DNA from: a virus | IMG/VR virus record: IMGVR_UViG_3300043411_002995 | Location: 47,706 to 111,705 of that record | Length of the DNA stretch: 64,000 bases | Strand: one strand, 5' to 3' | Part shown: positions 4,654-47,036 of the stretch, piece after piece | How the letters are laid out: every line of letters begins with the position of its first letter | How positions within the stretch are numbered: position 1 is the stretch's first letter | Made by a program: the position numbers and the translations under genes | The notes under the pieces: generated by a model | What the model saw: the letters and a program-made list of their open reading frames with translations, nothing else | Told to the model about the DNA's origin: nothing | Databases searched by the model: none

Positions 4654-4677
4654 CGTCGGTTCTCCTGGTCGCGGCGG

Positions 4678-20566: not shown

Positions 20567-20594
20567 CGAGGCCTCGCTTCTGGTGTTGACGTCG

Positions 20595-20623: not shown

Positions 20624-20654
20624 GGAAGCGGAAGTACACCGAAAGGACCGCCAG

Positions 20655-21329: not shown

Positions 21330-21351
21330 TCGGGATCACTCCTCCTTTGCG

Positions 21352-21370
21352 GGCATAAGAAAGGACAGAA
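21352..21370 (+). promoter_or_regulatory. phage-specific promoter candidate GGCATAAG-N8-GAA
   Basis: One of six copies located just upstream of plus-strand genes. Confidence 0.7.
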
Positions 21371-21381
21371 GGAGCCACACC

Positions 21382-21717
21382 ATGTCCATCGATCCCAAGT
21401 CGCAGTCCACCGTTTCCCCCATCACCCCGCCGACGAAGGTCGACGAGTCCCCCACCCGCGAGCAGCAGGCGTTGGACCTCCACAGCAAGCTGCTGTCCGC
21501 CAACCCCGGCTGCGATCTGGAGGTGACGCTCGGTGCCAAGTACGGCCCCGACGCGATCAACCTCGAGACGCGCAACCGGGGTGCGGACAAGTTCGCTGCG
21601 GGGGTCCTCGCCGGCATCGCGTTCGCGGGACTCGCCGGCCTCATCGGCGTGGCGGTGGCGAAGGCCGTGACGCCGCGCCCCCAGGTCAAGAGCCTCGGGG
21701 ACGACGACACCAAGTAG
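21382..21717 (+). CDS. small membrane protein
   Basis: AAGGAG RBS; C-terminal hydrophobic helix FAAGVLAGIAFAGLAGLIGVAVA. Confidence 0.75.
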   Translation: MSIDPKSQSTVSPITPPTKVDESPTREQQALDLHSKLLSANPGCDLEVTLGAKYGPDAINLETRNRGADKFAAGVLAGIAFAGLAGLIGVAVAKAVTPRPQVKSLGDDDTK

Positions 21718-21726
21718 CAACCTCAA

Positions 21727-21793
21727 CCACCACTCGTGAGAGTGTTTTCCGCCGCGCAAGCGGCGAAACACCCTCGCGGGTGGTTTCTTACCC
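21727..21793 (+). terminator. long GCAA-loop hairpin followed by TTTCTTACCC
   Basis: CCACTCGTGAG/CTCGCGGGTGG stem with G-U pairs, CGCCGC-GCAA-GCGGCG top. Confidence 0.7.
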
Positions 21794-21813
21794 ATGACCA
21801 GGATCGCTCCGCG

Positions 21814-21830
21814 GGCATAAGAAGAGGGAA
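21814..21830 (+). promoter_or_regulatory. phage-specific promoter candidate GGCATAAG-N6-GAA
   Basis: Exact motif upstream of ATG 21852. Confidence 0.75.
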
Positions 21831-21851
21831 CCCCCAACCAAAGGATTCCCC

Positions 21852-22274
21852 ATGCGCAACAAGCTCGTGGCGACGCTCGACATCGTGTTGAGCGCCCGCC
21901 TCATCCATGCAGAGATTGAACGCACCGTGGAGCAGGCCCACAAGGTCTGCGACCCCCACCTGGCGATCTCGTTCGCCAACGCCCGGCAGACCGTGTCGAA
22001 CCCCGTCGACATGGCCGTCGAGCTCGAGATGCTCGACGCCGCCATCGACCTCTCGAAGGAGAACCTGGCAGAGATCGAGGGCCTGAAGCGCTCGATCGCC
22101 AAGTCGCTCCAGGGCCACGAGGTCCTGGAAGCGCTCGGCAGCGCGCTCGTGTCGCAAGACATGATCGACGCCGTCGAGGAGAAGTTCCAGGTCACCGGGC
22201 TCAGGCTCGAGGAGATGGAGAAGCTGCGGGACCTCACCGTGTCCCGCGCCCGCGACCTCACCAGCCAGCTCTAG
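21852..22274 (+). CDS. hypothetical coiled-coil protein
   Basis: AAAGGA RBS, GC3 bias. Confidence 0.75.
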   Translation: MRNKLVATLDIVLSARLIHAEIERTVEQAHKVCDPHLAISFANARQTVSNPVDMAVELEMLDAAIDLSKENLAEIEGLKRSIAKSLQGHEVLEALGSALVSQDMIDAVEEKFQVTGLRLEEMEKLRDLTVSRARDLTSQL

Positions 22275-22302
22275 GGCTGGTGGGTGCGCGGGGCTTCTCT
22301 GC

Positions 22303-22312
22303 TCTCTTAGCC
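22303..22312 (+). terminator. conserved 3' element TCTCTTAGCC
   Basis: Follows an imperfect hairpin around the 22274 stop and a pyrimidine tract. Confidence 0.55.
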
Positions 22313-22331
22313 TTCGGGTACACTCGCCACC

Positions 22332-22829
22332 ATGACGCCGTTCCTCCAGGCCTTCACCGATGAGCTGGTCAAGCTCGGCGCGGACAACGACCTGGTCGAC
22401 GTCTTCCGGGAGGCCAAGAAGGAGACCCGGAGGCAGCCGGCGCGGGACAGCGCCCTGAGCGCGCTGCGCGGGAACGGCACCCCGGTCAGCCGCAACTACC
22501 TCGCGTCGATGTTGATCGGCGGGATCTCGGTGCCGGCGGTGGCGGTCATGAGCAAGCGGATCTCGCGGGCCCTGAACAACAAGACCGTGCAGCGTGAGCT
22601 CCGCGGCCTTGGGCCGATGGCGCACCCGAAGAAGGTCCGGGCGCTGCGCGACGAGTTGCACACCGGCCCGTCGTTCGGGCGCGCGCGCCCCGGCACGCCG
22701 TTGAACACCCGGCCGCTCATCACGCACGGCGAGGCCGCCGGTCTTGCGGCGAGCGGCGTCGCGACCGGTGGCCTGGTGCAGATGATCCGGGACTACTTCG
22801 CGGGCAGCGCGCCGACGACCCCGCGCTAG
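22332..22829 (+). CDS. putative internal head protein with AFTDELVKLG tag
   Basis: MTPFLQAFTDELVKLGA; TACACT 7 nt before the ATG (leaderless). Confidence 0.75.
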   Translation: MTPFLQAFTDELVKLGADNDLVDVFREAKKETRRQPARDSALSALRGNGTPVSRNYLASMLIGGISVPAVAVMSKRISRALNNKTVQRELRGLGPMAHPKKVRALRDELHTGPSFGRARPGTPLNTRPLITHGEAAGLAASGVATGGLVQMIRDYFAGSAPTTPR

Positions 22830-25497: not shown

Positions 25498-25503
25498 GCG
25501 AGC

Positions 25504-27684: not shown

Positions 27685-27694
27685 GAGAGGGCTC

Positions 27695-28144: not shown

Positions 28145-28148
28145 GGGG

Positions 28149-29138
28149 CTAGAGGTCCGCGGGATCTTTCGAGAAGAAGGCGAAGGTCGACAGGATCTTA
28201 TCAGAAAGCTCGGAGCGCAGTTTCTCGAGATCGATGGGCGTCGGTGGCAGCGGCGGCGTGGACGGCCCCCACGCCGTGTTGACCTTGAGCGCCTTGATGA
28301 TGTCGAACAGCCGCCCGAAGACCTCGACGAGCGCCAGCCCGAGCACGGCCGGCTCGTTGGCGCCCGCGCCGCCCCACTGGTACTTCGGCCCGGATCCGAC
28401 CCACTCGCCATCGCGGTTGTAGGTCTCGCGGGTCTTCACCGTGACGGTCTCAGCTCCGGCCACGGTCGCCACCGCAGCGAGCTCGAGCTCACGCCGGACG
28501 CCGTCCTCGAGGGCGCCGTGGCGCACGGTGAACCGGTCGGCGCTCGGGCCCACCTGGTGGAGGAACGTCTCGTCGTGCACGGTCGCCGGGTCGGTCTTGC
28601 CGACGACCTTGCGTCCCCGCGCGGCGCTGTAGCCGTCGGCGATGTGACCGAAGTTCGTCGCGCGGAGGGTCATCGTGTTGTTCAAGGGGTTGAGGATCAC
28701 CCCCGTGCCTGCGCCGCCTTCGATGATCACCGCCCCCCCGCGCTTCAGGATCAGCGTGGCCTCGCCCGCTGTGCGGTAGACCTTGTCGCCGGCCGACTGG
28801 TTGTCGTCGGGGTTGCCGACCGAGGGAGGATCGTCGGTCTCCTCGTCGACCGTGGGCAGGCGCAGGAAGCCGATGATGCAGCACTGGGCGCCGTTGGTCG
28901 TCATGACGGCGATGCAGTAGGAGCCCGGCCGGGGCCGGGTGTTCTCGCCACCGCCGTCCGTGTCCACATCGGGGCTGAGGATGTGAGCGTCGTTGACGAC
29001 GAACCCATCGCTCGAGGAGAACCGGTAGGTGCCGGGGTGGTTCGGGTGTTCCTCGCCCAGCCGCCCGAACAGGATGGCGCCGGCGGGGACTCCTCGTCCT
29101 GCCCAGAACTTGTCGTTCACGAGGCCATCGTACAGCAA
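28149..29138 (-). CDS. baseplate central spike/hub protein (gp5/gpV-like)
   Basis: TTG 29138 with GAGGAG; N-terminal OB-like part (PRPGSYCIA...IIGF), beta-strand repeats, C-terminal EPAVLG...TAWGPSTPP. Confidence 0.6.
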   Translation of the reverse strand: MLYDGLVNDKFWAGRGVPAGAILFGRLGEEHPNHPGTYRFSSSDGFVVNDAHILSPDVDTDGGGENTRPRPGSYCIAVMTTNGAQCCIIGFLRLPTVDEETDDPPSVGNPDDNQSAGDKVYRTAGEATLILKRGGAVIIEGGAGTGVILNPLNNTMTLRATNFGHIADGYSAARGRKVVGKTDPATVHDETFLHQVGPSADRFTVRHGALEDGVRRELELAAVATVAGAETVTVKTRETYNRDGEWVGSGPKYQWGGAGANEPAVLGLALVEVFGRLFDIIKALKVNTAWGPSTPPLPPTPIDLEKLRSELSDKILSTFAFFSKDPADL

Positions 29139-29157
29139 AGAGGACTCCTCCCCCCCT

Positions 29158-29174
29158 GGCATAAGGAACACGAA
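29158..29174 (+). promoter_or_regulatory. phage-specific promoter candidate GGCATAAG-N6-GAA
   Basis: Exact motif upstream of ssb. Confidence 0.75.
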
Positions 29175-29209
29175 GCAGCATCCAATCTGCTGAGAACAAG
29201 GAGCCAACC

Positions 29210-29665
29210 ATGTCTTCCGTGAACAAGATGATCCTGATCGGCCACCTCGGAGCCGATCCCGAACTCAAGCACATCCCATCGGGGCAGCCCGTCTGCACCT
29301 TCACGATCGCCACCAACGAGGTCTGGAAGGACAAGTCGGGTGAGAAGCAAGAGCGCGTCGAGTGGACCAACATCGTCGCGTGGGGTCCGCTCGCCGAGGT
29401 CTGCGCGAAGTACCTGGCCAAGGGCCGGCAGGTCTACGTCGAGGGCCGCAAGCAGACGCGGACCTACGACGACAAGGAGGGCGTGAAGCGCTACTTCACC
29501 GAGTGCGTCGCCCAGGAGGTGAAGTTCCTCGGCGACGGCAAGGGTGACGGGGACGGTCGCGGTGAGAGCCGCGGCCGCAGCGACAGCAAGCCGTCGGGCC
29601 GCCGCGATGACGGCCCTCCGCCCCGTGGCCCGGGCCCCGGCGCGGACGACGACATCCCGTTCTGA
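29210..29665 (+). CDS. ssb: single-stranded DNA-binding protein
   Basis: [28 protein letters not shown]-terminal DDDIPF. Confidence 0.97.
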
Positions 29666-29691
29666 TCCCCTGCAACCAATGGGGGTGATCA

Positions 29692-30201
29692 ATGTCTTCG
29701 TATCTCGTCATCATGAGACACCGAGCCAAGTCTCTCGTGGCTAAGGCCACGGATTGTCGGCTCACCCTGGGCGAGTTCCTGCTCGACCAGACGGGCATCG
29801 TGGCGCGGCTCAACGGCGCGCTGGCGAAGTACTCGCGCCACATCGGCTGGCCCTACGTGCCCATCGGGTTCGCGACGCTGCGCGCCCTGATGGAGGACAT
29901 CCGCTACGGCGAGGCCGACACGTTCGATCTGGTCTGCCGGCGGTTCGGGTTCTCGGAGTCCGCCTCAGCGCCGATCGTCGAACGGGCGATCGGCCGGGTC
30001 GAGTGGCACATCGGTCCTGACGCACCGTGCGAGACCATGTGGCACGAGTCCGACCTGATCGAGGACGCCCAACGGCTCATCCGCTGGGGCGAGAGCCTCG
30101 TCACCCGCTGCCCCAACGGCGTCGTCGCGCACCAGCTGCAGGCGCTGGTGGCGATGTCGCGCGAGGACCTCGGGCGGTACGTCGCCCGCGCTCTGGGGTA
30201 G
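29692..30201 (+). CDS. hypothetical protein
   Basis: GC3 bias, follows ssb. Confidence 0.65.
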   Translation: MSSYLVIMRHRAKSLVAKATDCRLTLGEFLLDQTGIVARLNGALAKYSRHIGWPYVPIGFATLRALMEDIRYGEADTFDLVCRRFGFSESASAPIVERAIGRVEWHIGPDAPCETMWHESDLIEDAQRLIRWGESLVTRCPNGVVAHQLQALVAMSREDLGRYVARALG

Positions 30202-30211
30202 CATCCTCGGG

Positions 30212-30691
30212 ATGCGGAAGCCCCCCGAGGACATGACCAGCACGGAGGACCTCTGGCTCCGTGCGCTCGATCGCCAATGGCAGGAAACCCCCGAGCACCT
30301 CAAGGAGCTCGGGCAGGTCCTGCGCCGCAGCGTCGACCACGATGTGGACGAGCTCGCGGCATTCCTTTCCAAGCACGAGATCCAGGTCGCCGCGGAACAC
30401 CTCGCGGAGTTCCGCGACGTCCTGATCGTCAAGCGCATCGACATGAAGGACCTCGAGCCAGCGGCGCGCGCCCGCCTGCGCGCCCGCCTCCTTCAAGCCG
30501 ACGACCCGCGCCACATGACGGCGGACTACGCCGCGGCCATCCAGGCCGGCGAAGTCCCGCGGTGCCGCAGCTGCCGATGGTTCGTCACCGCACCCGGTGA
30601 CACCACCGCCGGCGGCGACAAGCCCTGCACCAGCTTCGGAACCAAGGGCGCCGACCAGGCGTGCTTCGGCTTCACGAAGACCGATCTCTGA
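30212..30691 (+). CDS. hypothetical protein with C-terminal Cys4 cluster
   Basis: CRSC...C...C; TAGCAT 7 nt before the ATG. Confidence 0.7.
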   Translation: MRKPPEDMTSTEDLWLRALDRQWQETPEHLKELGQVLRRSVDHDVDELAAFLSKHEIQVAAEHLAEFRDVLIVKRIDMKDLEPAARARLRARLLQADDPRHMTADYAAAIQAGEVPRCRSCRWFVTAPGDTTAGGDKPCTSFGTKGADQACFGFTKTDL

Positions 30692-30722
30692 AAAGGCTCT
30701 CGCTCCTTCATGAGCCTTTTCG

Positions 30723-30771
30723 ACGGCGCACGGGGCGGTTGGCTCCCAACCCCTGCGCCGTTTTTTTAGCC
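30723..30771 (+). terminator. intrinsic terminator hairpin plus T-run ending TTAGCC
   Basis: ACGGCGCA...TGCGCCGT stem then TTTTTTTAGCC. Confidence 0.8.
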
Positions 30772-31869
30772 TGAGGGCGTCGCGAGCCGCGAGCCGCGAG
30801 CCGGGTTGTAGAGCGACTCGACCATGTCCTTGTAGAAGGCGGTCTTGCTCGGCGGCTTCGCCTGGGCGCGCTCCTTCGCCGGCCCGCCGACCTGCCCAGG
30901 ACCGATGCTCTTCGGCTTGGGCGGGCTGGTCCCCATGCGCCAGGCCGAGCTCGCGCTCGAGCGCAAGGCCCCCGGTGCCTTGACCTCGGCGCCGGCCGCC
31001 GCCGCCCCGAGCTTCTCCTCCTGCGCTTCGAGCTCGCCCGCCCGCCGCTTCGCCGCCGCCCCTTCCCTCAGCGCCTCGACCAGCCGCTTGGCCAGGATGG
31101 TCGCCAGGACCGGCGCCGCCGCCGCCGCGACGTAGGTGCCGAAGGACGGGGCGAGCTCCTTCAGTGCGCGCATGGTGCCGTAGCCGCTGTGGCGAGCCCC
31201 CTGCAACGCCTTGTAGGACGCCCGCGCCTCCTCGATGAGTTCGGGGGCGGTGGTGGCGGCCACCAGCGCGGGGGCGTGGTCGTAGACGAACCGCCGGACC
31301 CGCTCCCCCTCCTGGGGCTCCGAGATCGTGCTGGCCGCGAGCCCCGCCCGAACCAGGTGGCCGATGGTGGACCCCGTGCCGAGCGTCTTGCCCATCGACT
31401 GGAGGGCCCGCCGCAGGTCGTGGCTGCCGGCGATCGGCGAGGCGTGGCCGATCTCGTGGAACGCCTGTGGGACCGACGACCGGTTGAGCCCGATGTGGGG
31501 GGTGACGTCGCCGACGGGCTCGCCGGCGATGCGCATGAGCAGGCTGCGGAGCGGGCCGGGGCGGTCCATGAAGTAGCCGGACTCGAACCCCGGCCCACCG
31601 GCGATGATGGGGACGGTGACGCCGCTCTTGCGGGCGAAGTCGGCGATTGCCTCCGCCTCGGCGCGCGTGAACTTCGAGAGCCGCTTCAGCGGCGTGCCGG
31701 TGTCGTCGTCGAGCGGCACGCCGGACATGAGCAGCTTCGCGAGCCCGTGCGGAGCGTCGCTCGTGAGCGGAGAGATCACGCGAGGAAGCCCTTCGTACGC
31801 GGCCGCGGCCGCGAGCGCTGGCGCGACGCCGAGCCCCCCACCGTCTTCCTGGTCCCGATCGTCGGACAT
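30766..31869 (-). CDS. membrane-associated zinc metallopeptidase (YugP/Zn_peptidase_2-like)
   Basis: AFHEIGHA, LIEEARASYKAL, FGTYVAAA; start overlaps the RNAP stop. Confidence 0.7.
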   Translation of the reverse strand: MSDDRDQEDGGGLGVAPALAAAAAYEGLPRVISPLTSDAPHGLAKLLMSGVPLDDDTGTPLKRLSKFTRAEAEAIADFARKSGVTVPIIAGGPGFESGYFMDRPGPLRSLLMRIAGEPVGDVTPHIGLNRSSVPQAFHEIGHASPIAGSHDLRRALQSMGKTLGTGSTIGHLVRAGLAASTISEPQEGERVRRFVYDHAPALVAATTAPELIEEARASYKALQGARHSGYGTMRALKELAPSFGTYVAAAAAPVLATILAKRLVEALREGAAAKRRAGELEAQEEKLGAAAAGAEVKAPGALRSSASSAWRMGTSPPKPKSIGPGQVGGPAKERAQAKPPSKTAFYKDMVESLYNPARGSRLATPSG

Positions 31870-34800
31870 CAGTAGACGCCTTCCTTCCTGGAACGACCCT
31901 GCGGGGCATCACCGAACTCGGCGCCGTAGGCGAAGGCCGGGACCGGTGAGTACCCGTGGAGGTCTGACTCGCTCATGGTGGCAGCGCCTTCGATGAGGCC
32001 CCTGGCCAGCTCACGATACCCCATCTGCCCCATCCAGTCGTCGCGGAGGAGGGGTACCCGCTGGATGCCGGCGAGGAAGGGTTCGTGGACGACCCGCTTC
32101 GGGCCCACGCCGATCGTCTTCTTCCCGCGGCGCTCCAAGACCGCCTTCATCGTCTCGTCGAAGGTCTCGCCCTTGGTAGCGCCGGGCACATCGTCCTCGT
32201 GCACGACATGCCCGACGGCTTCCTCGAGAGGCAGGTCACCGACCTTCTTGTTGTTGTAGTCGTTGACGACGGTCCACGACGCCACGTCACCCGGCAGGTA
32301 GGGGCCATCGCCAGGATCCAACACCCGCGTGGTGTTCCCCGCCGCGCGCACGACGGTCTCGATCGCCCGCCGCTTCAGCTTCACACCCTGGCCGTCGAAG
32401 GCCTTGTGGATCTCCTCGACGACGTAGTTCATCGCAGGGAGCATGCCCTTGAGGCGAACGAGGTCCTGCGGCTGCGCGATGCCCTTCGACAGGATGTCAC
32501 CACGCTTCACCTCGGACCCGACCCGGACGCGATCGCTGTCCCAGAGCCCCTGCTCGACGAAGACCGGCTCCTTCGAACCGCGGATGAAGATGTTCGTGCC
32601 GCCGCCGCCGGGCACGTCCTCGATCCGGTCGACCTTGCCGTCGGCCTCGGCCAAGGCCGCGCGGCCGCGCTTGATCTGGTGCAGCTTGAAGAGCTTGTCG
32701 ATCGCGGCGTACCCATCGAGGACGCCGCGCGTGCCCGAGACGCCGCCCTGGTGGAAGGTGCGCATCGTCATCTGGGTCAGCGGCTCGGACATCGCCTGAC
32801 CGGAGATCGCCCCGACGTTGTCGCCGATCGCCGGCAGCTTGCCGTTCTCGGTGATGCCGTAGCTCTTGGCGCTGATGCCGTGGGGCGTCGGGTCGGTCAA
32901 CGGCGACATCACCCACAGCGTCTTCTGCTTGCGGTCGCGCAGGGTGTTCAGCAGCGCCGCGGTGACCTGGTCGCCGGCGTGGGCGATGACCGTCCCGCCG
33001 ATGCGGATGTCCTTCGACAGGAAGCGGTCCTCGAGGTCGTTCGACCGGTTGTCGACCGGCAGCTCGATGCCTTCCTGCGGCCCCGAGTCGTGCCGCGAGA
33101 CCACCTGGGTCACCGAGGTGGCCATGATGTCCTTGTTGAAGGCGCCGGGCTCGGAGGTCTGCATCTGCTTGTCCACCGCGGCGGCCCGCGCGCCGTAGAG
33201 GGTCGCCCAGTAGTCGGACAGCGGCAGCCCCTCGGCGAACGAGCGCATCACCGGCGCGAGCTGGGCGTTGCCCCGGTGGTCGTCGACCATGAACGGCGCC
33301 GAGACGATCTGCTTGAGCTGGTTGCGGTTGCCGCGCGCGCCCGACCGCACCATCAGGTCGAAGTTGTTGTCCTGCTCGGGCAGGCGGACCTTGAGCATCG
33401 CGTTGAGCTCGTCGTTGGCCGCCGAGATGAGCTGCTCGCCGCTCGCACGCCCCTCGGGGGTGTCGAGCTTCAGCCCCAAGAGCCCCTTCCGGGTGCGCTC
33501 GAAGATCGCCTTCTTCTCGGGCAGGTCGGGGAGCAGGTCCTTCAGGCTCACGGTGAACCCGGTCTTGTAGGTGTGGAGGTCCCCCATCTTCTTGAGCTTG
33601 TCGACGACCCCGCCGTGGTCCTTCGGCAGCACGCGCGCGAGGTCGCGCATCAGCTCGTCGAGCCCCTTGCTGTCGAGCTCGCGGTCCGCGAACTTCGTCT
33701 GCAGCTCGGGTGGCAGCACCTGCAGCAACTCGGGCTTGTACTTCGGGTCGCGCGACATCTGGTACAGCCCCAGCGCCGCCTCGTTCTGCGGCTTGATCAT
33801 GATGCCGCCGGTGCCCGGGTTGAAGAGGTTCCGCGACGGCATCATCCGGTACGCCTCCTCGATCGCGTCCTCGAGGATGGGCACGTGGACGTTCATGGCG
33901 TCGCCGTCGAAGTCGGCGTTGAAGCCCTTCACGACGAGCGGCGGGATCTTGATCGCCCTCCCATCGGTCATCTGCGGCGTGAAGCCCATCACCGAGAACT
34001 TGTGGAGCGAGGGGGCGCGGTTGAGCAGCACCGGGCGCGAGGCCATCTCGGCCTGCAGCGCCGATAGCGCGATGGGGGATCGCTTGTCGATCTCCTCCTC
34101 CGCGGCGAGCGGCTTCATGCCCGAGTGGTTCACCAAGCGCCGGGTCACGAACGGGCGGAAGAGCGTCCAGGACATCTCCTCGGGGAGTCCGACCTCGTCG
34201 ACGCCGAGCTTGGGCTCGGGGATGATGGTGCCGCGGCCGACCAGGTTCTGTCGCCGGCGCAGCACCTCGTACTGGAAGTAGCCGGTCTTCGCCGGCTTGC
34301 CCTTGACCTGCTCGAGCACGCCCTTGGGCCGGCGGGCCTCGGGGTAGAAGGCGATCGGCTTGCCGATGCCCGAGAGCGCCTGCATGCCCTTGTAGAGGTC
34401 CTCGCGGAGCGGCGCGCTCACCGAGTCGGGGATGAACGGGATGTCGTTCTGCCACTTCAGCTCGTTGTTCACGAGCGCAAGGTCGCGGTAGAGCGTGTTG
34501 AGCCCGGGCGTCGACAACGACCCATCCTCCATCTCGACGACGGGGCGGAAGTTGGGGGGGATGACGGGGAGCTTCGTCTGGACGTAGGCGTCCTCGGGGC
34601 GGATCTTGAGCTTCTTGAGCGCGGAGAGGTACTTCAGGCTCTTGTTCGCCTTGTCGAGCTCCTCGGGGGTCCGTGCCTGCTTGGCCTCCTCGGTCCACTG
34701 GGAGATCTGGTCGTCGACGTTGATCTTGCCGAGCAGCGCCTTCACGGCGGCGCCGCTGGTGACGGTGACGGGATCCTTCTCGTCGCCGAACTCCCCGGTC

Positions 34801-37800
34801 TCGGGGTTCACCCAGAGCTTGCCGGTGACCAGGCCACTGAACTGCTGCTCGTTGAGCCCGGTGAGCTGTCGGATCGGCTTCTCGAAGATGGGGTTCGGGA
34901 CGGGCTCGGCCAGATCGATGTGCCCCCAGCGGTCGCCCTTGCGGCCGCCGAAGACCGTGCGGTCGAGCAACCCGCCGCGCTCCTCCTTCAGGTCCTTGGC
35001 GTTGACGAAGACCGGATCGACGACCGCGCCGTTGCTGATCTTGTCGACGTCGGCGTCCGTCATCGGCTGCAGGACCATCTTCGAGCCGTTCCGCTTCACG
35101 TTGATGCCGGCGGCCTGGAGGTAGCCCTCGAACTTCTTGTAGGCGAAGGTCGGGGTCGGCGGCGGCTTCATCAGCCCTGAGCCGGCGCCGCCGGCGAGCC
35201 AGGTCCAGAACGGCTCGTTCTTGGACGCCTTGTAGGTCGCCATCTCGCGCAGGTTCGCGCGCGCGCCATGCGACAGCATCGAGTAGAAGGTGATGAGGTC
35301 GAGCGCCTTGGCGCCTTCCTCGCCGCCGCTCACGGGGTTCCCGTTGGAGTCGTACTTGCCCTCGCCGCGCGCCGAGTACTGGGTAGTCGCCTGCTTTCCG
35401 AGCTTCAGGATGTACTGCGGCCCGGTCATGACCTGCCCCAACGCCTCCTTGCTGTGGGGGTCGTAGAGCGTCTCGGTGTCGGAGACGCCGGCCTTGGCCA
35501 GCTCGTCGCTGACCCGCTGGGCGTACCCGTCCTTGCTCGTGATCGCGTTGTCGACGATGTAGGGCTTGCCCCGGTGCTCGGCGAGCTTGGCGGCCGCCGT
35601 CTCGAGCATCTGGGACGGGTTCACGCGGCTGGTGATGCCGTGCGGGTTGAGGAGGATATCGATCGGCTCGTGCGTGCCGTCGGGCTTGATCGAGTACGGC
35701 GCCTCCGCATCCTCGATGATCTTCGTGATGATGCCCTTGCCGCCGTGACGGTTCGTGACCTTGTCGCCGATCTGCGCTGGCTCGCGCGTGCGGACGTAGA
35801 CCTTCACCTTCTTGCCCGTGCGGACGACGTCGACGACCTCGCCGTCGTAGTCCTCGGTCCACTCCTCGGCGACCCCCCGCTTCGGGGGCATGTTGGCGCC
35901 GAGGCGACGCATCGCGAGGTAGTCGGGGTCGTTCTTGTTGTCCTTGGTGCCGACCCAGAGCGGGTCGCCCTTGCGGACGATCTGTCCCTTCCGGATGACC
36001 CCATCCTTGTCGAGCTTGGCCGAGGTCTCGTCGTCGATCGCCCCGGGCTTCCACGCCCGGTACTGGTCGAGCGAGAGGGTCGTCTGCTCGTTGAGCATCG
36101 TCGAGTACTGGTGCATGTGCTCGCTGGTGAGCTTTTTGCGCGCGCTCTCGGTGATGACGATGCCGTCCTCGAAGTTGTAGCCCTTCCAGGGGATGTAGGC
36201 GGCCTTGAGGTTGGTGCCGATCGCCATCACCCCGTCGGAGGTGAAGTTGGTGTCGGCCAGGGTCTCGCCCTTCTTGACGGCCTGCCCCTCGACCACGCGC
36301 ACCGTCGAGTCGACGAACGCCTTGTTGTTCAGCGGGAGGTTGCTGAACAGCGGATGCTCGTTCTCGCCGTCCTTGGTCTTGACCACGATCTTGTTCTTCG
36401 AGATCGACTGGACGACGCCGTCCTCGAGGGCGGCGGTGGAGAAACTCCCGCCGATCGCCCGCTCGATCGTGCCGCCCCCGACCTTCACCTGCACGAGCGG
36501 CGCCTCGCGGTTGACCAGCGGGATCGCCTGCTCGAGCATCTTGGTCGCCATCTGCGCCCGGACGCCCATGGCGGCGGGCAAGAAGGGGATGGTGTTCGAG
36601 GCGATCGAGAAGGCCTGCCGTGGTGAGTGCAGCACCACGTCGACCTGGTCGGCATCGACCAGCCGGCGCTCCCCGTTGACGTGGGCCAGCACCTTCTTGT
36701 CGATCGCCACGCCGTCCTCGAACTGGTCGGAGAAGGAGAGCGTGAGGTTCGCGGCCTCGGCCGCGGTGATCTTCCGGTTCTTCTTCGTCTTGACGTCGTA
36801 GACGGTGGTCTCGAGCTCGTCGCCGCGCTTGCTCACGCCCACCGGCAGGTGCATCGTCAGGCCGATGTGGCCGGAGTCGGGCGTGTGGATCGGATCGATG
36901 AACCCGAGCTGCGACGGGTGGACGGCGCGCTCCTCCGCCCGGACGTTCTGCGCGTTGGACCCCGCGCCGCCCTCGCCCATGATGGTGACCTTGGTCATCC
37001 CGTTGAGCATGTGGATCGGGTTCGTCTGATCGGGCACGTGGGCGTGCCCGCCGGTCTGCGTGAAGAACGACGAGAGCGTCGAGGAGAGCTGGTTCGAGCT
37101 CACGAGCTGCCCGACCTGCGTCGGGGGCTGCCGCTGGTTGTTCAGCTTCCGCAGGATCTTCCTGCGGTACTCGTTGAGGAACGGCTGGATCTCGCCGTTG
37201 TCCTTGACGAGACGCTCGCGCATCAGGTCCGAGACGGACATGATCTTCTTGAACTCGAGGGACTGGCGATCGTCGGGCGCCCGCTTCCCAGCGGCGGCGG
37301 CGATCAGCTCCTTGGAGCTGGCGACGATGGCCTCGGGGGAGACCTTGTCGAAGGCCTGGCCCACCGTCTTCTTGGTGACCTCGGGGCGGAGCTCGGTCTG
37401 GTCGAAGTAGGCCAGGAGCGCCTTGCCGGCCTCGTCAGGCGTCTCGAACCGCGGGCGCGTGTCACCCGCCCGCAGCCGCTTCAGGTCGGCGGCCTTGTCG
37501 GCGGCGAAGTACTCGGCGGCCTTCTTGACGGACTCGTTCGCCTTCTTCTTCGAGGCGGCCTTGTTCGCGCTGAGGATCTGGTCGCCCCAGGCCCGCGCCA
37601 GGGTTGAGTCGGCCACGCCCATGGCCGAGAGGATGGGGTAGAGCGCCGGGCCGCTCTTGTCCTCGGCGCCGCCGGCGCGGCGGGCGAGGCGGAAGACCGT
37701 GGAGGCGGGGTTGAACTCGACGTCGAAGGCGCGGCCGGCGACGTTGATCTCGGCCTTCGTCTCGCCGTTCTTCTTCTCGGTGACGTAGATGCCCGGCTTG

Positions 37801-38156
37801 CGGCGCAGCTGGCTCTGCACCTGGTAGTGCTTGCCGTCGACGATGAAACTGCCGAAGTTGGTGGCCTTGGGCAGGGTCGCGATCTTCATGCGCTTCTGCG
37901 TGGAGATCACCTTCCCGGTCTTGCGGTCGGTGAGCTCGAGGTTCGCGTAGACCGGGACGCCCCAGGTCTTGTCCTTCCGCACGGCCTCGCGCTGGCCCTC
38001 GGCGTCCCCGGGATCAGCCGAGTCGTCGACCCAGACCTCCTTGGCCCGGAGGCGGAGGCCGGTCTGCTCGGCCTGGACGTCGAGGGCCTTGGTGAAGGCC
38101 TCCGCGATGTCCTTCTTCACCTTCTCGAACTGGCTCTGGTAGTCGAAGCTCTCCAT
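31869..38156 (-). CDS. rpoBC: single-chain beta/beta' fusion DNA-directed RNA polymerase
   Basis: beta motifs GYNFEDGI, GDKVTNRHGGKG, LNPHGITSRVN; beta' motifs LLNRAPSLH, NADFDGD (33900-33920), SGARG, EPLTQMTMRTFH; no stop between halves. Confidence 0.95.
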   Translation of the reverse strand: MESFDYQSQFEKVKKDIAEAFTKALDVQAEQTGLRLRAKEVWVDDSADPGDAEGQREAVRKDKTWGVPVYANLELTDRKTGKVISTQKRMKIATLPKATNFGSFIVDGKHYQVQSQLRRKPGIYVTEKKNGETKAEINVAGRAFDVEFNPASTVFRLARRAGGAEDKSGPALYPILSAMGVADSTLARAWGDQILSANKAASKKKANESVKKAAEYFAADKAADLKRLRAGDTRPRFETPDEAGKALLAYFDQTELRPEVTKKTVGQAFDKVSPEAIVASSKELIAAAAGKRAPDDRQSLEFKKIMSVSDLMRERLVKDNGEIQPFLNEYRRKILRKLNNQRQPPTQVGQLVSSNQLSSTLSSFFTQTGGHAHVPDQTNPIHMLNGMTKVTIMGEGGAGSNAQNVRAEERAVHPSQLGFIDPIHTPDSGHIGLTMHLPVGVSKRGDELETTVYDVKTKKNRKITAAEAANLTLSFSDQFEDGVAIDKKVLAHVNGERRLVDADQVDVVLHSPRQAFSIASNTIPFLPAAMGVRAQMATKMLEQAIPLVNREAPLVQVKVGGGTIERAIGGSFSTAALEDGVVQSISKNKIVVKTKDGENEHPLFSNLPLNNKAFVDSTVRVVEGQAVKKGETLADTNFTSDGVMAIGTNLKAAYIPWKGYNFEDGIVITESARKKLTSEHMHQYSTMLNEQTTLSLDQYRAWKPGAIDDETSAKLDKDGVIRKGQIVRKGDPLWVGTKDNKNDPDYLAMRRLGANMPPKRGVAEEWTEDYDGEVVDVVRTGKKVKVYVRTREPAQIGDKVTNRHGGKGIITKIIEDAEAPYSIKPDGTHEPIDILLNPHGITSRVNPSQMLETAAAKLAEHRGKPYIVDNAITSKDGYAQRVSDELAKAGVSDTETLYDPHSKEALGQVMTGPQYILKLGKQATTQYSARGEGKYDSNGNPVSGGEEGAKALDLITFYSMLSHGARANLREMATYKASKNEPFWTWLAGGAGSGLMKPPPTPTFAYKKFEGYLQAAGINVKRNGSKMVLQPMTDADVDKISNGAVVDPVFVNAKDLKEERGGLLDRTVFGGRKGDRWGHIDLAEPVPNPIFEKPIRQLTGLNEQQFSGLVTGKLWVNPETGEFGDEKDPVTVTSGAAVKALLGKINVDDQISQWTEEAKQARTPEELDKANKSLKYLSALKKLKIRPEDAYVQTKLPVIPPNFRPVVEMEDGSLSTPGLNTLYRDLALVNNELKWQNDIPFIPDSVSAPLREDLYKGMQALSGIGKPIAFYPEARRPKGVLEQVKGKPAKTGYFQYEVLRRRQNLVGRGTIIPEPKLGVDEVGLPEEMSWTLFRPFVTRRLVNHSGMKPLAAEEEIDKRSPIALSALQAEMASRPVLLNRAPSLHKFSVMGFTPQMTDGRAIKIPPLVVKGFNADFDGDAMNVHVPILEDAIEEAYRMMPSRNLFNPGTGGIMIKPQNEAALGLYQMSRDPKYKPELLQVLPPELQTKFADRELDSKGLDELMRDLARVLPKDHGGVVDKLKKMGDLHTYKTGFTVSLKDLLPDLPEKKAIFERTRKGLLGLKLDTPEGRASGEQLISAANDELNAMLKVRLPEQDNNFDLMVRSGARGNRNQLKQIVSAPFMVDDHRGNAQLAPVMRSFAEGLPLSDYWATLYGARAAAVDKQMQTSEPGAFNKDIMATSVTQVVSRHDSGPQEGIELPVDNRSNDLEDRFLSKDIRIGGTVIAHAGDQVTAALLNTLRDRKQKTLWVMSPLTDPTPHGISAKSYGITENGKLPAIGDNVGAISGQAMSEPLTQMTMRTFHQGGVSGTRGVLDGYAAIDKLFKLHQIKRGRAALAEADGKVDRIEDVPGGGGTNIFIRGSKEPVFVEQGLWDSDRVRVGSEVKRGDILSKGIAQPQDLVRLKGMLPAMNYVVEEIHKAFDGQGVKLKRRAIETVVRAAGNTTRVLDPGDGPYLPGDVASWTVVNDYNNKKVGDLPLEEAVGHVVHEDDVPGATKGETFDETMKAVLERRGKKTIGVGPKRVVHEPFLAGIQRVPLLRDDWMGQMGYRELARGLIEGAATMSESDLHGYSPVPAFAYGAEFGDAPQGRSRKEGVY

Positions 38157-38174
38157 GGTCACCTGGTGCCGTCG

Positions 38175-38191
38175 GGCATAAGCCTCGTGAA
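38175..38191 (+). promoter_or_regulatory. phage-specific promoter candidate GGCATAAG-N6-GAA
   Basis: Exact motif, divergent from the RNAP start. Confidence 0.75.
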
Positions 38192-38300
38192 GGAGGGATG
38201 TTACGCGTGAGCCATCGTAGCAAGAACCCCCCGCGGCCGCTGCGCTCCGTCACCGTCGGAGCGTTCGATGCCGTCTTGACCTGCTGGCACGAGGAGATAC

Positions 38301-38525
38301 ATGTCCGCGCTGATCGTCCTGCTCAACCCGCGGCCGCGGGGCCGCTCTGCACCCAGTCGCCAGTCGCCCCCGACCCGGATCCGGGCACTGGCCGACGCTA
38401 GCATCCAGTTCGGCCGCACCCTGATCGCAGGCTGGATGCTGCTGGCCTGGGTCCTCATCCTGACGAAAGAGGCGATGCGCGGCATCGCGTGGCTCACCGG
38501 CGCCACCGCCGATCTGTCGGCATAA
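38301..38525 (+). CDS. small membrane protein
   Basis: GAGGAG RBS; TLIAGWMLLAWVLIL helix. Confidence 0.6.
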   Translation: MSALIVLLNPRPRGRSAPSRQSPPTRIRALADASIQFGRTLIAGWMLLAWVLILTKEAMRGIAWLTGATADLSA

Positions 38526-38536
38526 GCCAGGGAGAA
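38519..38536 (+). promoter_or_regulatory. phage-specific promoter candidate GGCATAAG-N7-GAA
   Basis: Overlaps the TAA of the preceding ORF, upstream of ATG 38544. Confidence 0.65.
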
Positions 38537-38543
38537 GGAGACT

Positions 38544-38999
38544 ATGTCCTCGTACATCTGCCTGAGGCGCTACGGCCTCATCCGCAAGGCGGCGCCGGCA
38601 CCCCAGCCCGTCCGCTTCTACAAGACCATGCAGAGCCTCGCGGCGATCACCGCGAGCGTCACGGTGCCAGCCCACGGCATGCTGGTCTCGGGCTTCTCCC
38701 ACCAGTCCATCCCCATGCGATCCCAGATCTGGACCTTCTTCAAGCAGCTCCTCCGGGGGTGCGCTTGGGCCGCGGCGATCGCCGCGGGCATGTTGGTCTA
38801 CACGGCGTTCGTCTCCAAGTGGAAGGAGAACGGCTTCCCCACCATCCCCATCAGCGCGCTCGTGGCGATCGATCAGGCCATGCCCAAGAACGGTCCGTCG
38901 AACGTCGTCACGCTCGGTGGCGGCAGTGCGCAGGTCCCATCTCCGCGACCCGCCAACACCCGGCAGACGAACCTCATCGACATCGAGTACGAGGGCTAG
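38544..38999 (+). CDS. hypothetical membrane protein
   Basis: AAGGAG RBS; one hydrophobic helix. Confidence 0.65.
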   Translation: MSSYICLRRYGLIRKAAPAPQPVRFYKTMQSLAAITASVTVPAHGMLVSGFSHQSIPMRSQIWTFFKQLLRGCAWAAAIAAGMLVYTAFVSKWKENGFPTIPISALVAIDQAMPKNGPSNVVTLGGGSAQVPSPRPANTRQTNLIDIEYEG

Positions 39000-39460
39000 T
39001 CGAGCGCGCGCGCTACCAGCATCCCCGCCAACAAGGAGGTCGAGATCGCAGCAACCGTCCACGCGACCGGCGACCCCCACATCGGCTTGACCCGCTCGAG
39101 CTGGTACTTCTTGTCGAGTGCGATCAGATCGGAGGAGAGCTTGTCGGTGCGTGCGACAAGCAGCGCCTGGCTCTTGGCGTAGGTCGCCACCTGGTCCTGC
39201 AGGGACGTCACCTGCAGCGCCAGGTTGGCGGCGCGCTCGCCCTCTTTCTTAGCCACCACCCGCTGGTGGATCAGCTCGGCGTCGACCTCGAGGACGGCCT
39301 TCCAGTCGTCGATGTTGACGTAGCCGCAGATGGTTCCGATTCCCGGCACCACGTACTTCGTGCAGGGGGGAACCAGCTGCGGCTGGTAGACGTCGTCAGC
39401 GTGTGCCGGGGACGTCGTCCCAAGAACGGATGCGATCGATAGCGCGACGATCAGCCTCAT
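38996..39460 (-). CDS. secreted coiled-coil protein with C-terminal TM helix, spanin-partner candidate
   Basis: ATG 39460 with GAGGAGG; signal peptide ending AHA-D, two Cys, coiled coil, hydrophobic C-terminus. Confidence 0.6.
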   Translation of the reverse strand: MRLIVALSIASVLGTTSPAHADDVYQPQLVPPCTKYVVPGIGTICGYVNIDDWKAVLEVDAELIHQRVVAKKEGERAANLALQVTSLQDQVATYAKSQALLVARTDKLSSDLIALDKKYQLERVKPMWGSPVAWTVAAISTSLLAGMLVARALD

Positions 39461-39845
39461 AGCGTGCCTCCTCGGCCCGTAGGTCGGCCGCGATGACCCG
39501 CAGGGTCTCCTGCGCAGCGTCGATCTCCTTCTGGCGCTCGGCGAGCACCAGGCTGTCCTTGGCGATCTGGGCGTGCATGGTGGCCTGGTCGGCCTGGATG
39601 CGCGCCTTCTCCTTCTCGTGGCGCAGCATCGCGAGCTCGCGGTTCCGCCGCCACGAGACCCAGGCCCAGATGGCGGCGGCCGCGAGCACCACCGCGAGGA
39701 TGATGATCGTCCCCAGCCACGACTTGCTGCCGCCGCCCGCCGCCGCGGGTTGCTGGTTGCGCTTGATGACCGCCTCGAGCTTCGAGAGGATCTCGGCCGG
39801 GTCGAGGGGCGGCTTCGCGACGCCCGTCGTGTCCTGGTCAGGCAT
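39396..39845 (-). CDS. i-spanin-like protein
   Basis: Single TM (WLGTIIILAVVLAAAAIWAWV) then long coiled coil; 3' end overlaps next gene. Confidence 0.55.
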   Translation of the reverse strand: MPDQDTTGVAKPPLDPAEILSKLEAVIKRNQQPAAAGGGSKSWLGTIIILAVVLAAAAIWAWVSWRRNRELAMLRHEKEKARIQADQATMHAQIAKDSLVLAERQKEIDAAQETLRVIAADLRAEEARYEADRRAIDRIRSWDDVPGTR

Positions 39846-42765: not shown

Positions 42766-42779
42766 GGTGGCCTACCGGC

Positions 42780-44108: not shown

Positions 44109-44110
44109 GG

Positions 44111-44311
44111 TCAGCCTCCGGCGGCCCAGGCCGGGCCGCGGCCGCGGCCGCGCGCAGGGTCGAAGCCGTCTTCGACTACCTGGGCGAGTTCGCGTTCGAA
44201 GTCCTGGCGGGTCTTGTCCATGAACTCTCTGCGGAACTCGGAGATCGTGGCCGCCAGTTCTCTGGCTGCCTCGACTTCCGAGGGCGGGGTCGGGTCGTCA
44301 GACTGCATCAT
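44111..44311 (-). CDS. small hypothetical protein
   Basis: ATGA overlap with the upstream gene; fills the gap. Confidence 0.5.
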   Translation of the reverse strand: MMQSDDPTPPSEVEAARELAATISEFRREFMDKTRQDFERELAQVVEDGFDPARGRGRGPAWAAGG

Positions 44312-45348
44312 GGCACAGGAGGCGCAACCGTTGAAGCGCCGGCCGGGGCTCCGGGCACCGCCTGGCGTAGCACGCCGCGCTCGTCCAGGTACGCCTTGAC
44401 CACCACGAGCTTCAGCAGGTGGATGTCCAGCGGGTGATCCGGTCGCCATTCGATCGTGGTTGGGTCGACGTCCTTGATCCGCTCCCACGCCGCGGCGACG
44501 TCCATGCGGAAGCCGACGGTCCACTTCTTCCGGTCGAGGAGCCCCTGCACCGGCCCGAAGAACTCCTCGGGAGCGTAGACCCAGCCGTGGTCCTCGAGGA
44601 TCGCCCCGATGTACGCGATGACCTCGGCGTCGAACTCCTCATCGGCGCGGATCGCGCGGAGGATGGACACGGCGAACGCCGTCTGCGCAGGGCTCATCGG
44701 CTGGAAGGCACCGATGATCGGGACGATGTCGTTCCAGGCCAGGCCGCTGTCCTCGAAGATGTCCCAGTCCAGCCACGGCATGTCGCTTGTCACGGCGACC
44801 CGCAGGGCCATGATCTTGTTGCGGGTCAGGTCTCCGACCGGGCCGAAGTCCTTGCGCAGTGCCCACCACAGCGTGGCGGGCTCCCAGTCGGCCCAGGCGG
44901 TGCGATAGCGCATCGTGAGGGTGTCGAGCAGCTGCAGCGGGTGGGCGCGCTTGTCGGTGAAGATCCGCCCGTGCGTCCGGCGGGATGGCAGCGCCGGCTC
45001 GGGCGCCGGCTCTTCGCCCTCCTCGAGCTCGGGCTCAGCGTCCGCGCGATCGAACCCGTCCACTTCCATGGCCGCCGATGGGGCGACGGCCTCGAGGCCA
45101 TCGTCCTGGGCATCCTGGGCCTCCTGGACCTCCTGGGGCTCTTGGGCTGTGTCTGCCACCGCCGGCGCCGTGGTGGCCGCCGGCGCCTGCCGCTCGAGCT
45201 CCTTCAGGATCGATGGCGAAACGGTCGGCAGGTCCAGCGCCTCGGCCACGCCGGGGTCAAGGTCGACGGCGGTCTTCGCCAGTGGGCCGCGCCCCATGAC
45301 CGTGGCGAAGAAGCTCTGCTCCGCCGAGTTGGGGATGTGCCGGGTCAA
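44308..45348 (-). CDS. hypothetical virion-associated protein
   Basis: AKTA site, acidic linker, globular C-terminal domain. Confidence 0.7.
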   Translation of the reverse strand: MTRHIPNSAEQSFFATVMGRGPLAKTAVDLDPGVAEALDLPTVSPSILKELERQAPAATTAPAVADTAQEPQEVQEAQDAQDDGLEAVAPSAAMEVDGFDRADAEPELEEGEEPAPEPALPSRRTHGRIFTDKRAHPLQLLDTLTMRYRTAWADWEPATLWWALRKDFGPVGDLTRNKIMALRVAVTSDMPWLDWDIFEDSGLAWNDIVPIIGAFQPMSPAQTAFAVSILRAIRADEEFDAEVIAYIGAILEDHGWVYAPEEFFGPVQGLLDRKKWTVGFRMDVAAAWERIKDVDPTTIEWRPDHPLDIHLLKLVVVKAYLDERGVLRQAVPGAPAGASTVAPPVP

Positions 45349-45349
45349 G

Positions 45350-46495
45350 CTACGCCTCGCCGGAGATGACCTGCTTGATCAGCGCCTTCTCGGGGGCCGG
45401 GAGCGACTCGTAGATCTCGACCGGGTTGGCCGCGAACTGGCTGGCGAAGCTCGACCCCATGTAGCCGGCGATCTTCTTCTGGACAGCCTCCTTGCGCAGG
45501 TCGGCCTCGGTGATCGTCATCCCGTCGACCTCGTCGGACCACCCCTCGGCGACCTTGCCCATGGTGCTGGCATAAGGGTCGCTGAGCCCCCGATCGTAGT
45601 ACCGCGACAGCCCGGTCGCGGCGTCGATGGCCTGGAGGGCTGCTGCAGCGTCCTCCGGGCTGGTCTCCCCCAGGGAGGCCGCCAGCTTGTCGAGGACCGA
45701 CCGAGCGTCCTGGTTGCGAGGAAGGAGGGACTTGCGCTGCTCGATGTGGGCCAGCACGTGGCGGTTCCAGCCCGGCGACGCCCACTTCTCGAGGAGGTCG
45801 TGACCGGAGACGTCCACCTCGAGCTCGGCCGCGCGGGCCTGCACGTTGCGCGCGAACTGGTGACGGTGCGGAGGCGAGAGGTCCATGGCGTACTTGTCGA
45901 AATACTCGGCCGCCACCTTCACGTACTCGGCCGTCGGCATCGCGTACTTGCGCAGGATGGTCCCGTCCTCCGAGCGCACCACGAGCCCCCAGTGCTCGTT
46001 GGGCAGGTTGACGAAGGCCTCGATCTCCGCGGCCTGGGCCTGCTTCTCGATGAACTCGCGCTCGGCGAGCTTGCGCAGCATCCACCCAGTCTCCGATCCC
46101 TCGACGAAGGTGTTGCTCGTCGCCTCGTCATCACCCACCCGCGCCGCGTACGCGGCCACCATCTTCGAGTTCGGCACCCCGTACGCGTCGCATGCGGTCT
46201 TGATGAACTTGGCGGCGATGAACCTCGCCGGCCAGGCCAGCTTCTCGTGCGTCGCCTGGAAGTACTGGGCGCTCAACCAGGCGTTGCCCGGGTCGTTCAC
46301 CGGGTAGCGCCGCATCACCGCCGCGCGCTTGGTCAGGACGATCAAGCCGAAGTCGGTGTCCGGCAACGCGGCGTGCTGGTCCGCCGTCAAGACCGTGGTC
46401 TGCGCGCGCGCGATCGCGGCAGGCATGGCGATCTTGCTCATCAACTCGTGCTTGCTGTCGTCGTAGAAGTCGAGGACCGCGGCTGCGATGGTCAT
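45350..46495 (-). CDS. hypothetical head-associated protein with internal duplication
   Basis: LPDTDFGLIV...RRYPV and LPNEHWGLVV...RKYAM repeats; many K-x-A. Confidence 0.7.
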   Translation of the reverse strand: MTIAAAVLDFYDDSKHELMSKIAMPAAIARAQTTVLTADQHAALPDTDFGLIVLTKRAAVMRRYPVNDPGNAWLSAQYFQATHEKLAWPARFIAAKFIKTACDAYGVPNSKMVAAYAARVGDDEATSNTFVEGSETGWMLRKLAEREFIEKQAQAAEIEAFVNLPNEHWGLVVRSEDGTILRKYAMPTAEYVKVAAEYFDKYAMDLSPPHRHQFARNVQARAAELEVDVSGHDLLEKWASPGWNRHVLAHIEQRKSLLPRNQDARSVLDKLAASLGETSPEDAAAALQAIDAATGLSRYYDRGLSDPYASTMGKVAEGWSDEVDGMTITEADLRKEAVQKKIAGYMGSSFASQFAANPVEIYESLPAPEKALIKQVISGEA

Positions 46496-46523
46496 TCTGA
46501 TCGCCTTTCCCTGCGCAGCAGGA

Positions 46524-46553
46524 ACGGTATCACGCGCCTCGAAGGGGGGTCAA
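46524..46553 (-). promoter_or_regulatory. sigma70-type promoter TTGACC-N18-TACCGT
   Basis: Same hexamers as at 8033-8062; heads the portal operon. Confidence 0.7.
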
Positions 46554-46579
46554 CGCAGGGGAACCACTCGACCTTTCCA

Positions 46580-46596
46580 GGCATAAGAACCTTGAA
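46580..46596 (+). promoter_or_regulatory. phage-specific promoter candidate GGCATAAG-N6-GAA
   Basis: Exact motif upstream of the lone plus-strand gene at 46686. Confidence 0.75.
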
Positions 46597-47027: not shown

Positions 47028-47036
47028 CGCCACCGT

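Follow-up and report, generated by a model that had tools for sequence, protein, structure and literature searches.

Within a 64,000-nucleotide stretch of viral DNA (the window), which comprises bases 47706-111705 of the 111,705-bp IMG/VR viral contig IMGVR_UViG_3300043411_002995, the 8-mer GGCATAAG and its variant GGCACAAG, jointly written GGCAYAAG, recur on a single strand shortly ahead of genes. On balance, we regard these sites as probable members of a phage promoter class that is read by a phage-encoded sigma factor together with a phage-encoded single-chain beta-beta' RNA polymerase. The parts of this reading differ in strength: it is very likely that the motif is a promoter core, likely that the phage sigma reads it, and somewhat favoured that this sigma acts at the motif with the phage beta-beta' core. 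Positions refer to the window unless marked 'contig'. The contig is linear, has a measured GC content of 68% (a preliminary description of this DNA had put it at about 70%) and is estimated to be 71% complete. According to a codon-bias gene call, the genes in its leftmost 48 kb lie nearly all on the plus strand and those of the window chiefly on the minus strand, with four small plus-strand islands (20655-22829, 29210-30691, approximately 38198-38999 and 46686-47027). Intergenic DNA makes up 4.6% of the contig.

The motif is strongly over-represented and confined to one strand. GGCATAAG was found seven times in the window, always on the plus strand, against 0.24 copies expected, and none of 100 shuffles gave seven, in line with the earlier remark that such recurrence is unlikely by chance. 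Over the whole contig, nine copies were located on the plus strand and none on the minus strand, where an order-2 Markov model predicts about 0.02 per strand, making GGCATAAG the top over-represented strand-asymmetric 8-mer. Among the one-mismatch variants, which were examined in this contig only, GGCACAAG was the sole one to behave similarly: its four copies, all on the plus strand, lie just ahead of plus-strand genes, three of them in intergenic DNA and one within the last codons of the upstream open reading frame (ORF). GGCAYAAG therefore occurs 13 times on the plus strand and never on the minus strand. Nine of the 13 copies are fully intergenic (p = 6e-10 given the intergenic share), and in three others the overlap with the upstream gene is confined to its last codons or its stop codon. 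A genome-wide search of this kind had been suggested in the preliminary description, and the distribution that it yielded is far from random.

That description had listed six plus-strand copies of GGCATAAG with exact coordinates and strand, but its total was one short, as a copy at 45569-45576 had been missed. The six were said to lie just upstream of plus-strand genes, and the distance from motif end to start codon is indeed 22, 30, 44, 15, 17 and 98 nucleotides (nt), in order of position. The copy at 21352-21359 precedes gene 21382-21717 and has a CAC box 15 nt upstream, and that at 21814-21821 follows hairpins and a T-rich tail (21740-21792) and precedes gene 21852-22274. At 29158-29165 the motif heads the operon of the single-stranded DNA-binding protein (SSB, 29210-29665, followed by 29737-30201 and 30212-30691), divergently from the minus-strand gene 28149-29138, and it has an orthologous copy in relatives. 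The site at 38175-38182 lies 13 nt from the start codon of the RNA polymerase gene on the opposite strand. At 38519-38526 the motif precedes gene 38544-38999, again with a CAC box 15 nt upstream, and the TAA within this core terminates ORF 38301-38525. The last of the six, at 46580-46587, heads gene 46686-47027 and stands back-to-back with a canonical minus-strand promoter (46524-46553), a pair that is kept in relatives. A GAA follows the core after 6 nt at 21814, 29158, 38175 and 46580, after 7 nt at 38519 and after 8 nt at 21352, exactly as first noticed. The motif had also been said to head the plus-strand islands, which holds for three of the four; the first island has the motif inside instead.

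The same arrangement was found in related phages. With the polymerase ORF as a probe, 37 IMG/VR loci were recovered, and five related contigs were compared, with polymerases 55-62% identical to that of the window (only 36% in the case of L030) and GC contents of 55-61%. Whole-record scans of these five gave forward/reverse GGCAYAAG counts of 12/0, 0/7, 6/0, 3/0 and 0/2, while the reversed control pattern showed no strand bias. In each of the five, as here, every copy (30 in all) is on the strand that does not encode the polymerase. Orthologous copies were observed ahead of SSB, ahead of the gene corresponding to 46686 and, opposite the polymerase gene, at 20-25 nt from its start codon. In an alignment of this polymerase-divergent region with four relatives, GTCAC-N12-GGCAYAAG was the only conserved sequence outside the coding sequence.

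We built a logo from 43 sites gathered by the exact pattern. With positions numbered from the first core base, purines prevail at -18/-17, followed by C (30/43) at -15 and A (29/43) at -14, so that an upstream box reading rrnCAC lies 12 nt ahead of the core; the positions from -6 to -4 are T-rich and C is found at -2. Downstream of the core, five unconstrained bases are followed by T (24/43, +13), G (31/43, +14), A (27/43, +15) and A (29/43, +16). The T and G, six and seven nt past the core, are found at 13/15 and 11/15 of the sites of Salmonella phage Arash, a distant cultured relative considered below, and this fits sigma-70-family geometry. In the relatives, the TGAA is clearly distinct from the Shine-Dalgarno (SD) sequence, which lies further downstream.

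If the G of TGAA is taken as +1, the core would span -14 to -7, and the upstream box, with its purines and then CAC, would fall at approximately -32 to -27, followed by a T-rich spacer. The GG at -14/-13 would then occupy the place of the extended -10 (TG), and CATAAG would extend from -12 to -7, sharing A-11, T-10, A-9 and A-8 with TATAAT but carrying C at -12 and G at -7. A discriminator of 6 nt ending in T would lead to a start at G/A, with the pyrimidine/purine pair as -1/+1. As judged from the sequence, this layout would fit the geometry of a sigma-70-family promoter, and GGCAYAAG would be the -10-type core of a phage-specific class. The housekeeping -10 (TAnnnT/TATAAT, with T-12 and T-7) is not what these sites display, as CATAAG is present in all 43 exact-pattern copies, and no TTGACA-like -35 signal was detected about 17 nt upstream in the logo. 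The earlier statement that the motif is not the sigma70 consensus was thus accurate, with mismatches at -12, -7 and -35. The comparison likewise lends good support to what had been proposed, a promoter with a non-housekeeping consensus and a start near the GAA, the latter being the natural reading of this layout.

Since a start codon invariably follows the motif at a distance of 12-100 nt, and in two cases the motif overlaps the stop codon of the preceding gene, it could also belong to the 5' leader, as an RNA processing or translation signal or as a binding site for a phage regulator. We consider this very improbable. Five sites directly follow a hairpin and T-run and lie 17-24 nt ahead of an SD sequence and ATG, a position where a new transcript start is expected, and three copies head divergent units that have no upstream co-directional gene. 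Further, the box lacks symmetry and resembles a -10 element, a T/G pair follows it at the fixed distance of six bases, and not one copy was found on the opposite strand, where leaders occur as well. The promoter reading is preferred because of the one-strand copies in six related contigs, the combined footprint of motif and upstream box, the fixed T/G pair and the succession of terminator, promoter and SD sequence. In two relatives, a terminator T-run leads straight into GGCATAAG.

Canonical promoters were found on the other strand of the same genome. The pattern TTGACN-N16-19-TAnnnT has seven matches in the contig, where 0.9 would be expected per strand; the minus strand carries six, and six of the seven are intergenic and located 6-91 nt ahead of co-directional genes. 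The minus-strand promoter back-to-back with the motif (TTGACC-N18-TACCGT with TGn, 46524-46553) precedes the operon that runs from gene 45350-46495 to the portal gene, and is kept in five relatives as TTGACC, a variable spacer, usually TGn, and TACCGT (TACGGT in one). Other minus-strand examples are TTGACC-N17-TACCCT (20595-20623) ahead of gene 19631-20566, TTGACC-N18-TACCGT (8033-8062) ahead of gene 7495-8025 and TTGACG-N18-TAGAAT (55364-55393) ahead of gene 54707-55273. Since these conserved T-7 promoters head minus-strand operons beside the GGCAYAAG sites, the phage, on this evidence, carries two distinct promoter classes, with the canonical one as the predicted promoter of at least four structural operons.

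These canonical sites also bear on whether the host might read GGCAYAAG itself, either as a housekeeping extended -10 or through an alternative sigma of the FliA/sigma-28 or sigma-F/B type. CATAAG and TATAAG have A-11, T-10, A-9 and A-8 in common with TATAAT, the G at -14, which is often preceded by T, suits an extended -10, and the GC-rich prefix followed by ATAA recalls the sigma-28 box GCCGATAA. However, G-7 is present in every collected copy, in phages of 35%-68% GC that include a Salmonella phage, while host promoters vary at this position and strongly prefer T; conserved T-7 promoters coexist on the other strand; a TTGACA-like box is missing at 17 nt; and the information content of the motif is far above that of host promoter populations. 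Moreover, the sigma-28 consensus was not matched, the common features being just the ATAA core and the GC-rich prefix, with purines instead of TAAA upstream. Reading by the host alone is therefore quite unlikely in our estimate, and recognition by a phage sigma remains the preferred explanation.

The preliminary description had ascribed the motif to a phage RNA polymerase/sigma pair, and genes for both partners are present. The minus-strand gene 31869-38162 encodes a single-chain beta-beta' RNA polymerase of bacterial type (2097 residues, with Pfam Rpb2/Rpb1 domains) that is very near to bacterial enzymes, with a PDB beta' match at E = 1e-100; the DNA of this region gave no match to INPHARED phages. 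A candidate for the cognate sigma that a sigma-70-family promoter calls for is encoded on the same strand at 62578-63426. Its 282-residue product, a group-3-like member of the sigma-70 family with regions 2, 3 and 4, matches Arash gp10 (E = 1e-19; 36% over regions 2-3) and aligns with RpoS over regions 2.x, 3 and 4 (2.8e-6). When its predicted structure was searched with Foldseek, the top matches were all full-length sigma factors (SigA, RpoS, SigB, SigD and WhiG), and its nearest solved relatives include SigD, SigB, sigma-F and WhiG. More than 110 metagenomic homologues were found, and the sigma was located in one of the five related fragments; a search for related loci with the sigma alone recovered no relatives. 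In the DNA-melting segment, FSSHVYNGVGRT stands in the place of FSTYATWWIRQT of RpoS without the tryptophan pair, a difference that would be compatible with an altered -10 rule. This pair, which forms the wedge at the -12/-11 junction, is absent from the whole phage sigma family in our alignment. Residues ~105-135 (region 2.3/2.4) read FSSHVYNGVGRTGRYLQRY, compared with FSTYATWWIRQTIERAI in RpoS.

Other sigma candidates were discarded. A Pfam search of the contig for sigma region 2 gave no match, and a weak region-4 match at contig 44890-44988 belongs to an unrelated short frame. Of two candidates picked for their position, the product of 48207-48827 is CarboxypepD_reg-like, with no similarity to Arash gp10, and that of 30766-31869 belongs to no family.

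The 62578-63426 sigma is the most likely reader of GGCAYAAG, and it would probably form a holoenzyme with the beta-beta' protein of 31869-38162. It might also do so on the core enzyme of the host, in the style of T4 gp55 or SPO1 gp28, leaving the phage beta-beta' to another purpose or gene class. Sigma factors of this ordinary sigma-70 type, with regions 2-4, are able to bind bacterial core enzymes, the contig yielded no alpha gene, and no sequence feature connects the motif with a core enzyme in preference to the sigma. On the other side, sigma and fused polymerase co-occur through the lineage, both are present in Arash virions (PMC10585845), and the host holoenzyme is already served by the canonical promoters. 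We judge use of the host core unlikely, although less so than reading by the host alone, and favour pairing of the sigma with the phage core.

Arash (OQ632216) offers a view of a related system in a cultured phage. Its purified virions contain beta, beta' and the sigma Gp10, with beta giving the most spectra, and the paper that reports them does not mention promoters (PMC10585845). The Arash polymerase is 33% identical to that of the contig. One strand of the Arash genome carries 30 copies of GGTATAAG and the other a single copy (control, 4/6); the strand with 30 is the one opposite the genes for structural proteins and polymerase. The 15 readable copies carry the T and G at the same N5 spacing, as well as an A/T-rich box upstream. 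Six low-GC IMG/VR relatives showed a similar, strong strand bias (27/9, 25/4, 16/2, 16/3, 13/2 and 6/1). Further, an nATAAG box faces the polymerase start in most relatives, in several of them followed by N5-TGAAG, and its -12 base is C, T, A or G according to clade. The core and spacing of a GGYATAAG-N5-TG class are found here, in the relatives and in Arash, and so is the strand preference, with counts of 13/0 here, 30/0 in the five relatives and 30/1 in Arash, and a strong bias in the six low-GC relatives. Since the G at -7 is kept across phages of 35%-68% GC, including a Salmonella phage, a shared sigma explains the pattern better than their hosts do.

Several observations weigh against the proposed reading or limit its reach. 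The box is near the housekeeping extended -10 (TGnTATAAT), above all in its Arash form tGGTATAAG, and some recognition by the host holoenzyme may occur. The invariance of the core is partly due to construction, since the 43 sites were taken with the exact pattern. A search for the alpha-subunit domain (PF01000) gave nothing on this contig, estimated to be 71% complete; the core may dispense with alpha or rely on that of the host. Vibrio phage D69 is not enriched for GGYATAAG (5/9; control 10/5), nor are mid-GC relatives for the exact 8-mer, which is therefore not universal in the lineage. Virion packing is known for Arash only (PMC10585845), whose polymerase is the 33%-identical one. The copy at 45569-45576, on the plus strand within the minus-strand gene 45350-46495, encodes P-Y-A-S codons, and it is probably fortuitous because a relative keeps these residues with other codons and without the motif; we thus rejected it as a conserved element. 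Finally, two minus-strand genes now lie in the path of the GGCATAAG copy at contig 29546. This copy belongs to a region to the left of the window (contig 29546-32441, locus L111) and is orthologous to one that heads plus-strand genes in the relative G001. The two genes that follow it (contig 29615-30016 and 30079-32307, the latter encoding 742 residues) were apparently inserted between promoter and operon, and the operon begins behind the one-mismatch variant GGCATACG at contig 32379, which overlaps an opposite-strand TTGACG box.

Where the genes headed by the motif can be named, they encode SSB, a sliding-clamp-like processivity factor, a Sak4-like annealing protein and a primase-helicase operon. 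The GGCAYAAG class would drive these non-structural genes along with small proteins of no named function, in transcription units that would end at ordinary hairpin/T-run terminators. The other strand encodes the structural proteins, the polymerase and the sigma, and at least four operons there would depend on canonical housekeeping-type promoters. Provided that virions carry the enzyme, as those of Arash do, GGCAYAAG promoters would fire ahead of all others upon infection. We propose such an earliest class, in keeping with the early promoter of the preliminary description, tentatively and by analogy with Arash. A broader scheme, which we consider rather doubtful, is that the lineage, widespread and hardly studied so far, injects an alpha-less beta-beta' with a group-3-like sigma that starts at GGnATAAG-N5-TG upon DNA entry, thereby expressing replication and take-over genes independently of the host polymerase and leaving structural and enzyme genes to host-type promoters.

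With regard to the ends of these units, an intrinsic plus-strand terminator, a GC hairpin followed by T7, closes the SSB island at 30722-30772. A hairpin with the T-rich tail TTTCTCTTAGCC (47035-47082, plus strand) closes the 46686-47027 island, and a terminator-like hairpin with CTCTTTCTTA (39227-39251, plus strand) follows gene 38544-38999. The tails at 30763-30774, 47066-47082, 39242-39254 and 21783-21792 have in common a T-run ending in TTAGCC or TTACCC, and a terminator tail near 70130 of G001 reads TTTTTTTAGCC. The 396 nt of 39000-39395, between the convergent genes 38544-38999 (plus) and 39396-39845 (minus), hold no confident gene and two plus-strand terminator-like hairpins. Since none is present on the minus strand, transcription of that strand might read through the plus-strand island into the polymerase gene.

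Some neighbouring genes deserve mention. The primase-helicase operon is headed by the GGCACAAG copy at contig 646, and its fusion protein of 1143 residues (contig 1690-5121, locus L110; PHROG 18685) has both primase and helicase matches. The first gene of the first plus-strand island, 20655-21329, encodes a zinc-ribbon-like N-terminus (CPHCGG); its upstream region 20567-20654 contains no promoter of either class, and GGTATAGG alone was found, 50 nt ahead of the start. Past the polymerase-divergent promoter, the small ORFs 38198-38401 and 38301-38525 overlap, and conservation was detectable in neither. In the 38198-38401 region, GTG or ATG opens a basic ORF of 64-67 residues; in the relatives L010, L012 and L014, the first ORF past this promoter seems to start at CTG, 7-8 nt after a strong SD sequence (aaggag...cacCTG). 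An F-x-D-E-L-x-K/R-x-A/G tag is shared by seven otherwise unrelated proteins, mostly within their first 20 residues, encoded at 708-1007, 5858-6115, 14824-15228, 16241-17044, 19293-19631 and 57795-58085 on the minus strand and at 22332-22829 on the plus strand; polymerase and sigma are without it. One of these genes lies in a plus-strand island, and therefore not every plus-strand gene need be non-structural.

The motif thus appears to be a promoter of sigma type that is linked to an unusual holoenzyme carried by the phage. When the literature was searched for the motif, and for virions with fused polymerase and sigma, the Arash paper and general reviews were all that came up. We found no paper that describes a GGCAYAAG class, nor are the Arash sites described in print, and the signals used by a machine of single-chain beta-beta' and its own sigma have no description in searchable papers. 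Such a machine is encoded by hundreds of uncultured and a few cultured phages, for which a concrete promoter candidate is now available, and transcription units and probable temporal classes could be drawn on these genomes from sequence alone. The present window contributes the C-12 form of the sub-clade and its pairing with canonical promoters. As a naturally occurring sigma/promoter pair whose -10 rule is unusual (G-7 and a variable -12), the system would be informative on how sigma region 2 reads DNA, and it may be of interest as an orthogonal expression part. Since Arash carries the signal, the prediction is open to bench checks in a Salmonella phage.

Among known promoters, the housekeeping extended -10 (TGnTATAAT) resembles the motif in G-14 and A-11/T-10/A-9/A-8, in needing no -35 hexamer and in the 6 nt to the start, but the motif has an invariant C-12 and G-7 and a fixed G-13, and coexists with canonical T-7 promoters. 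Group-3 sigma factors provide another parallel. The consensus of sigma-28/FliA/WhiG is TAAA-N15-GCCGATAA, and sigma-F/B types are likewise group-3; such promoters share with the motif a GC-rich prefix with an ATAA core and an upstream box closer than the classical -35. In contrast, GGCATAAG ends in G, the TAAA has degenerated to purines and CAC, and the proposed reader is a phage sigma.

Phage-sigma promoter classes are known from T4, whose late promoters (TATAAATA) depend on gp55, and from SPO1, with gp28 and gp33/34. As proposed here, a short, near-invariant, phage-specific box replaces the host consensus in these phages and defines a temporal gene class. However, their sigmas use the host core, while the phage of this contig adds a full beta-beta' core and its sigma keeps regions 3 and 4. 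A close parallel is Arash, where GGTATAAG differs from GGCATAAG by one base and shows the 30:1 bias opposite structural genes, the equal N5-TG spacing, and homologous sigma and polymerase; it differs in the T at -12 instead of C, the A/T-rich upstream box instead of CAC, and its two-chain polymerase.

Early promoters of virion RNA polymerases have been described for phiKZ and AR9 (PMC7598289, PMC9209446). In these phages and in N4, a packaged polymerase reads a dedicated promoter class, as would be the case here. The phiKZ and AR9 enzymes are split, highly diverged and without a sigma-70-family factor, whereas the core of this contig is near bacterial beta-beta' and is accompanied by a true sigma. 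The N4 virion polymerase is a single-subunit, T7-like enzyme that reads hairpins, in contrast to the multisubunit-type enzyme encoded here. GGCAYAAG does not behave as a T7/N4-type promoter, with conservation limited to the 8-mer and short flanks and a polymerase of multisubunit type, a T7-like gene not having been searched for. The likeness to N4 may extend to late genes, which could fall to the host sigma-70 enzyme. If the proposal is correct, an injected holoenzyme would reverse the order of transcription seen in T7 and parallel that of N4, but with an enzyme of cellular type.

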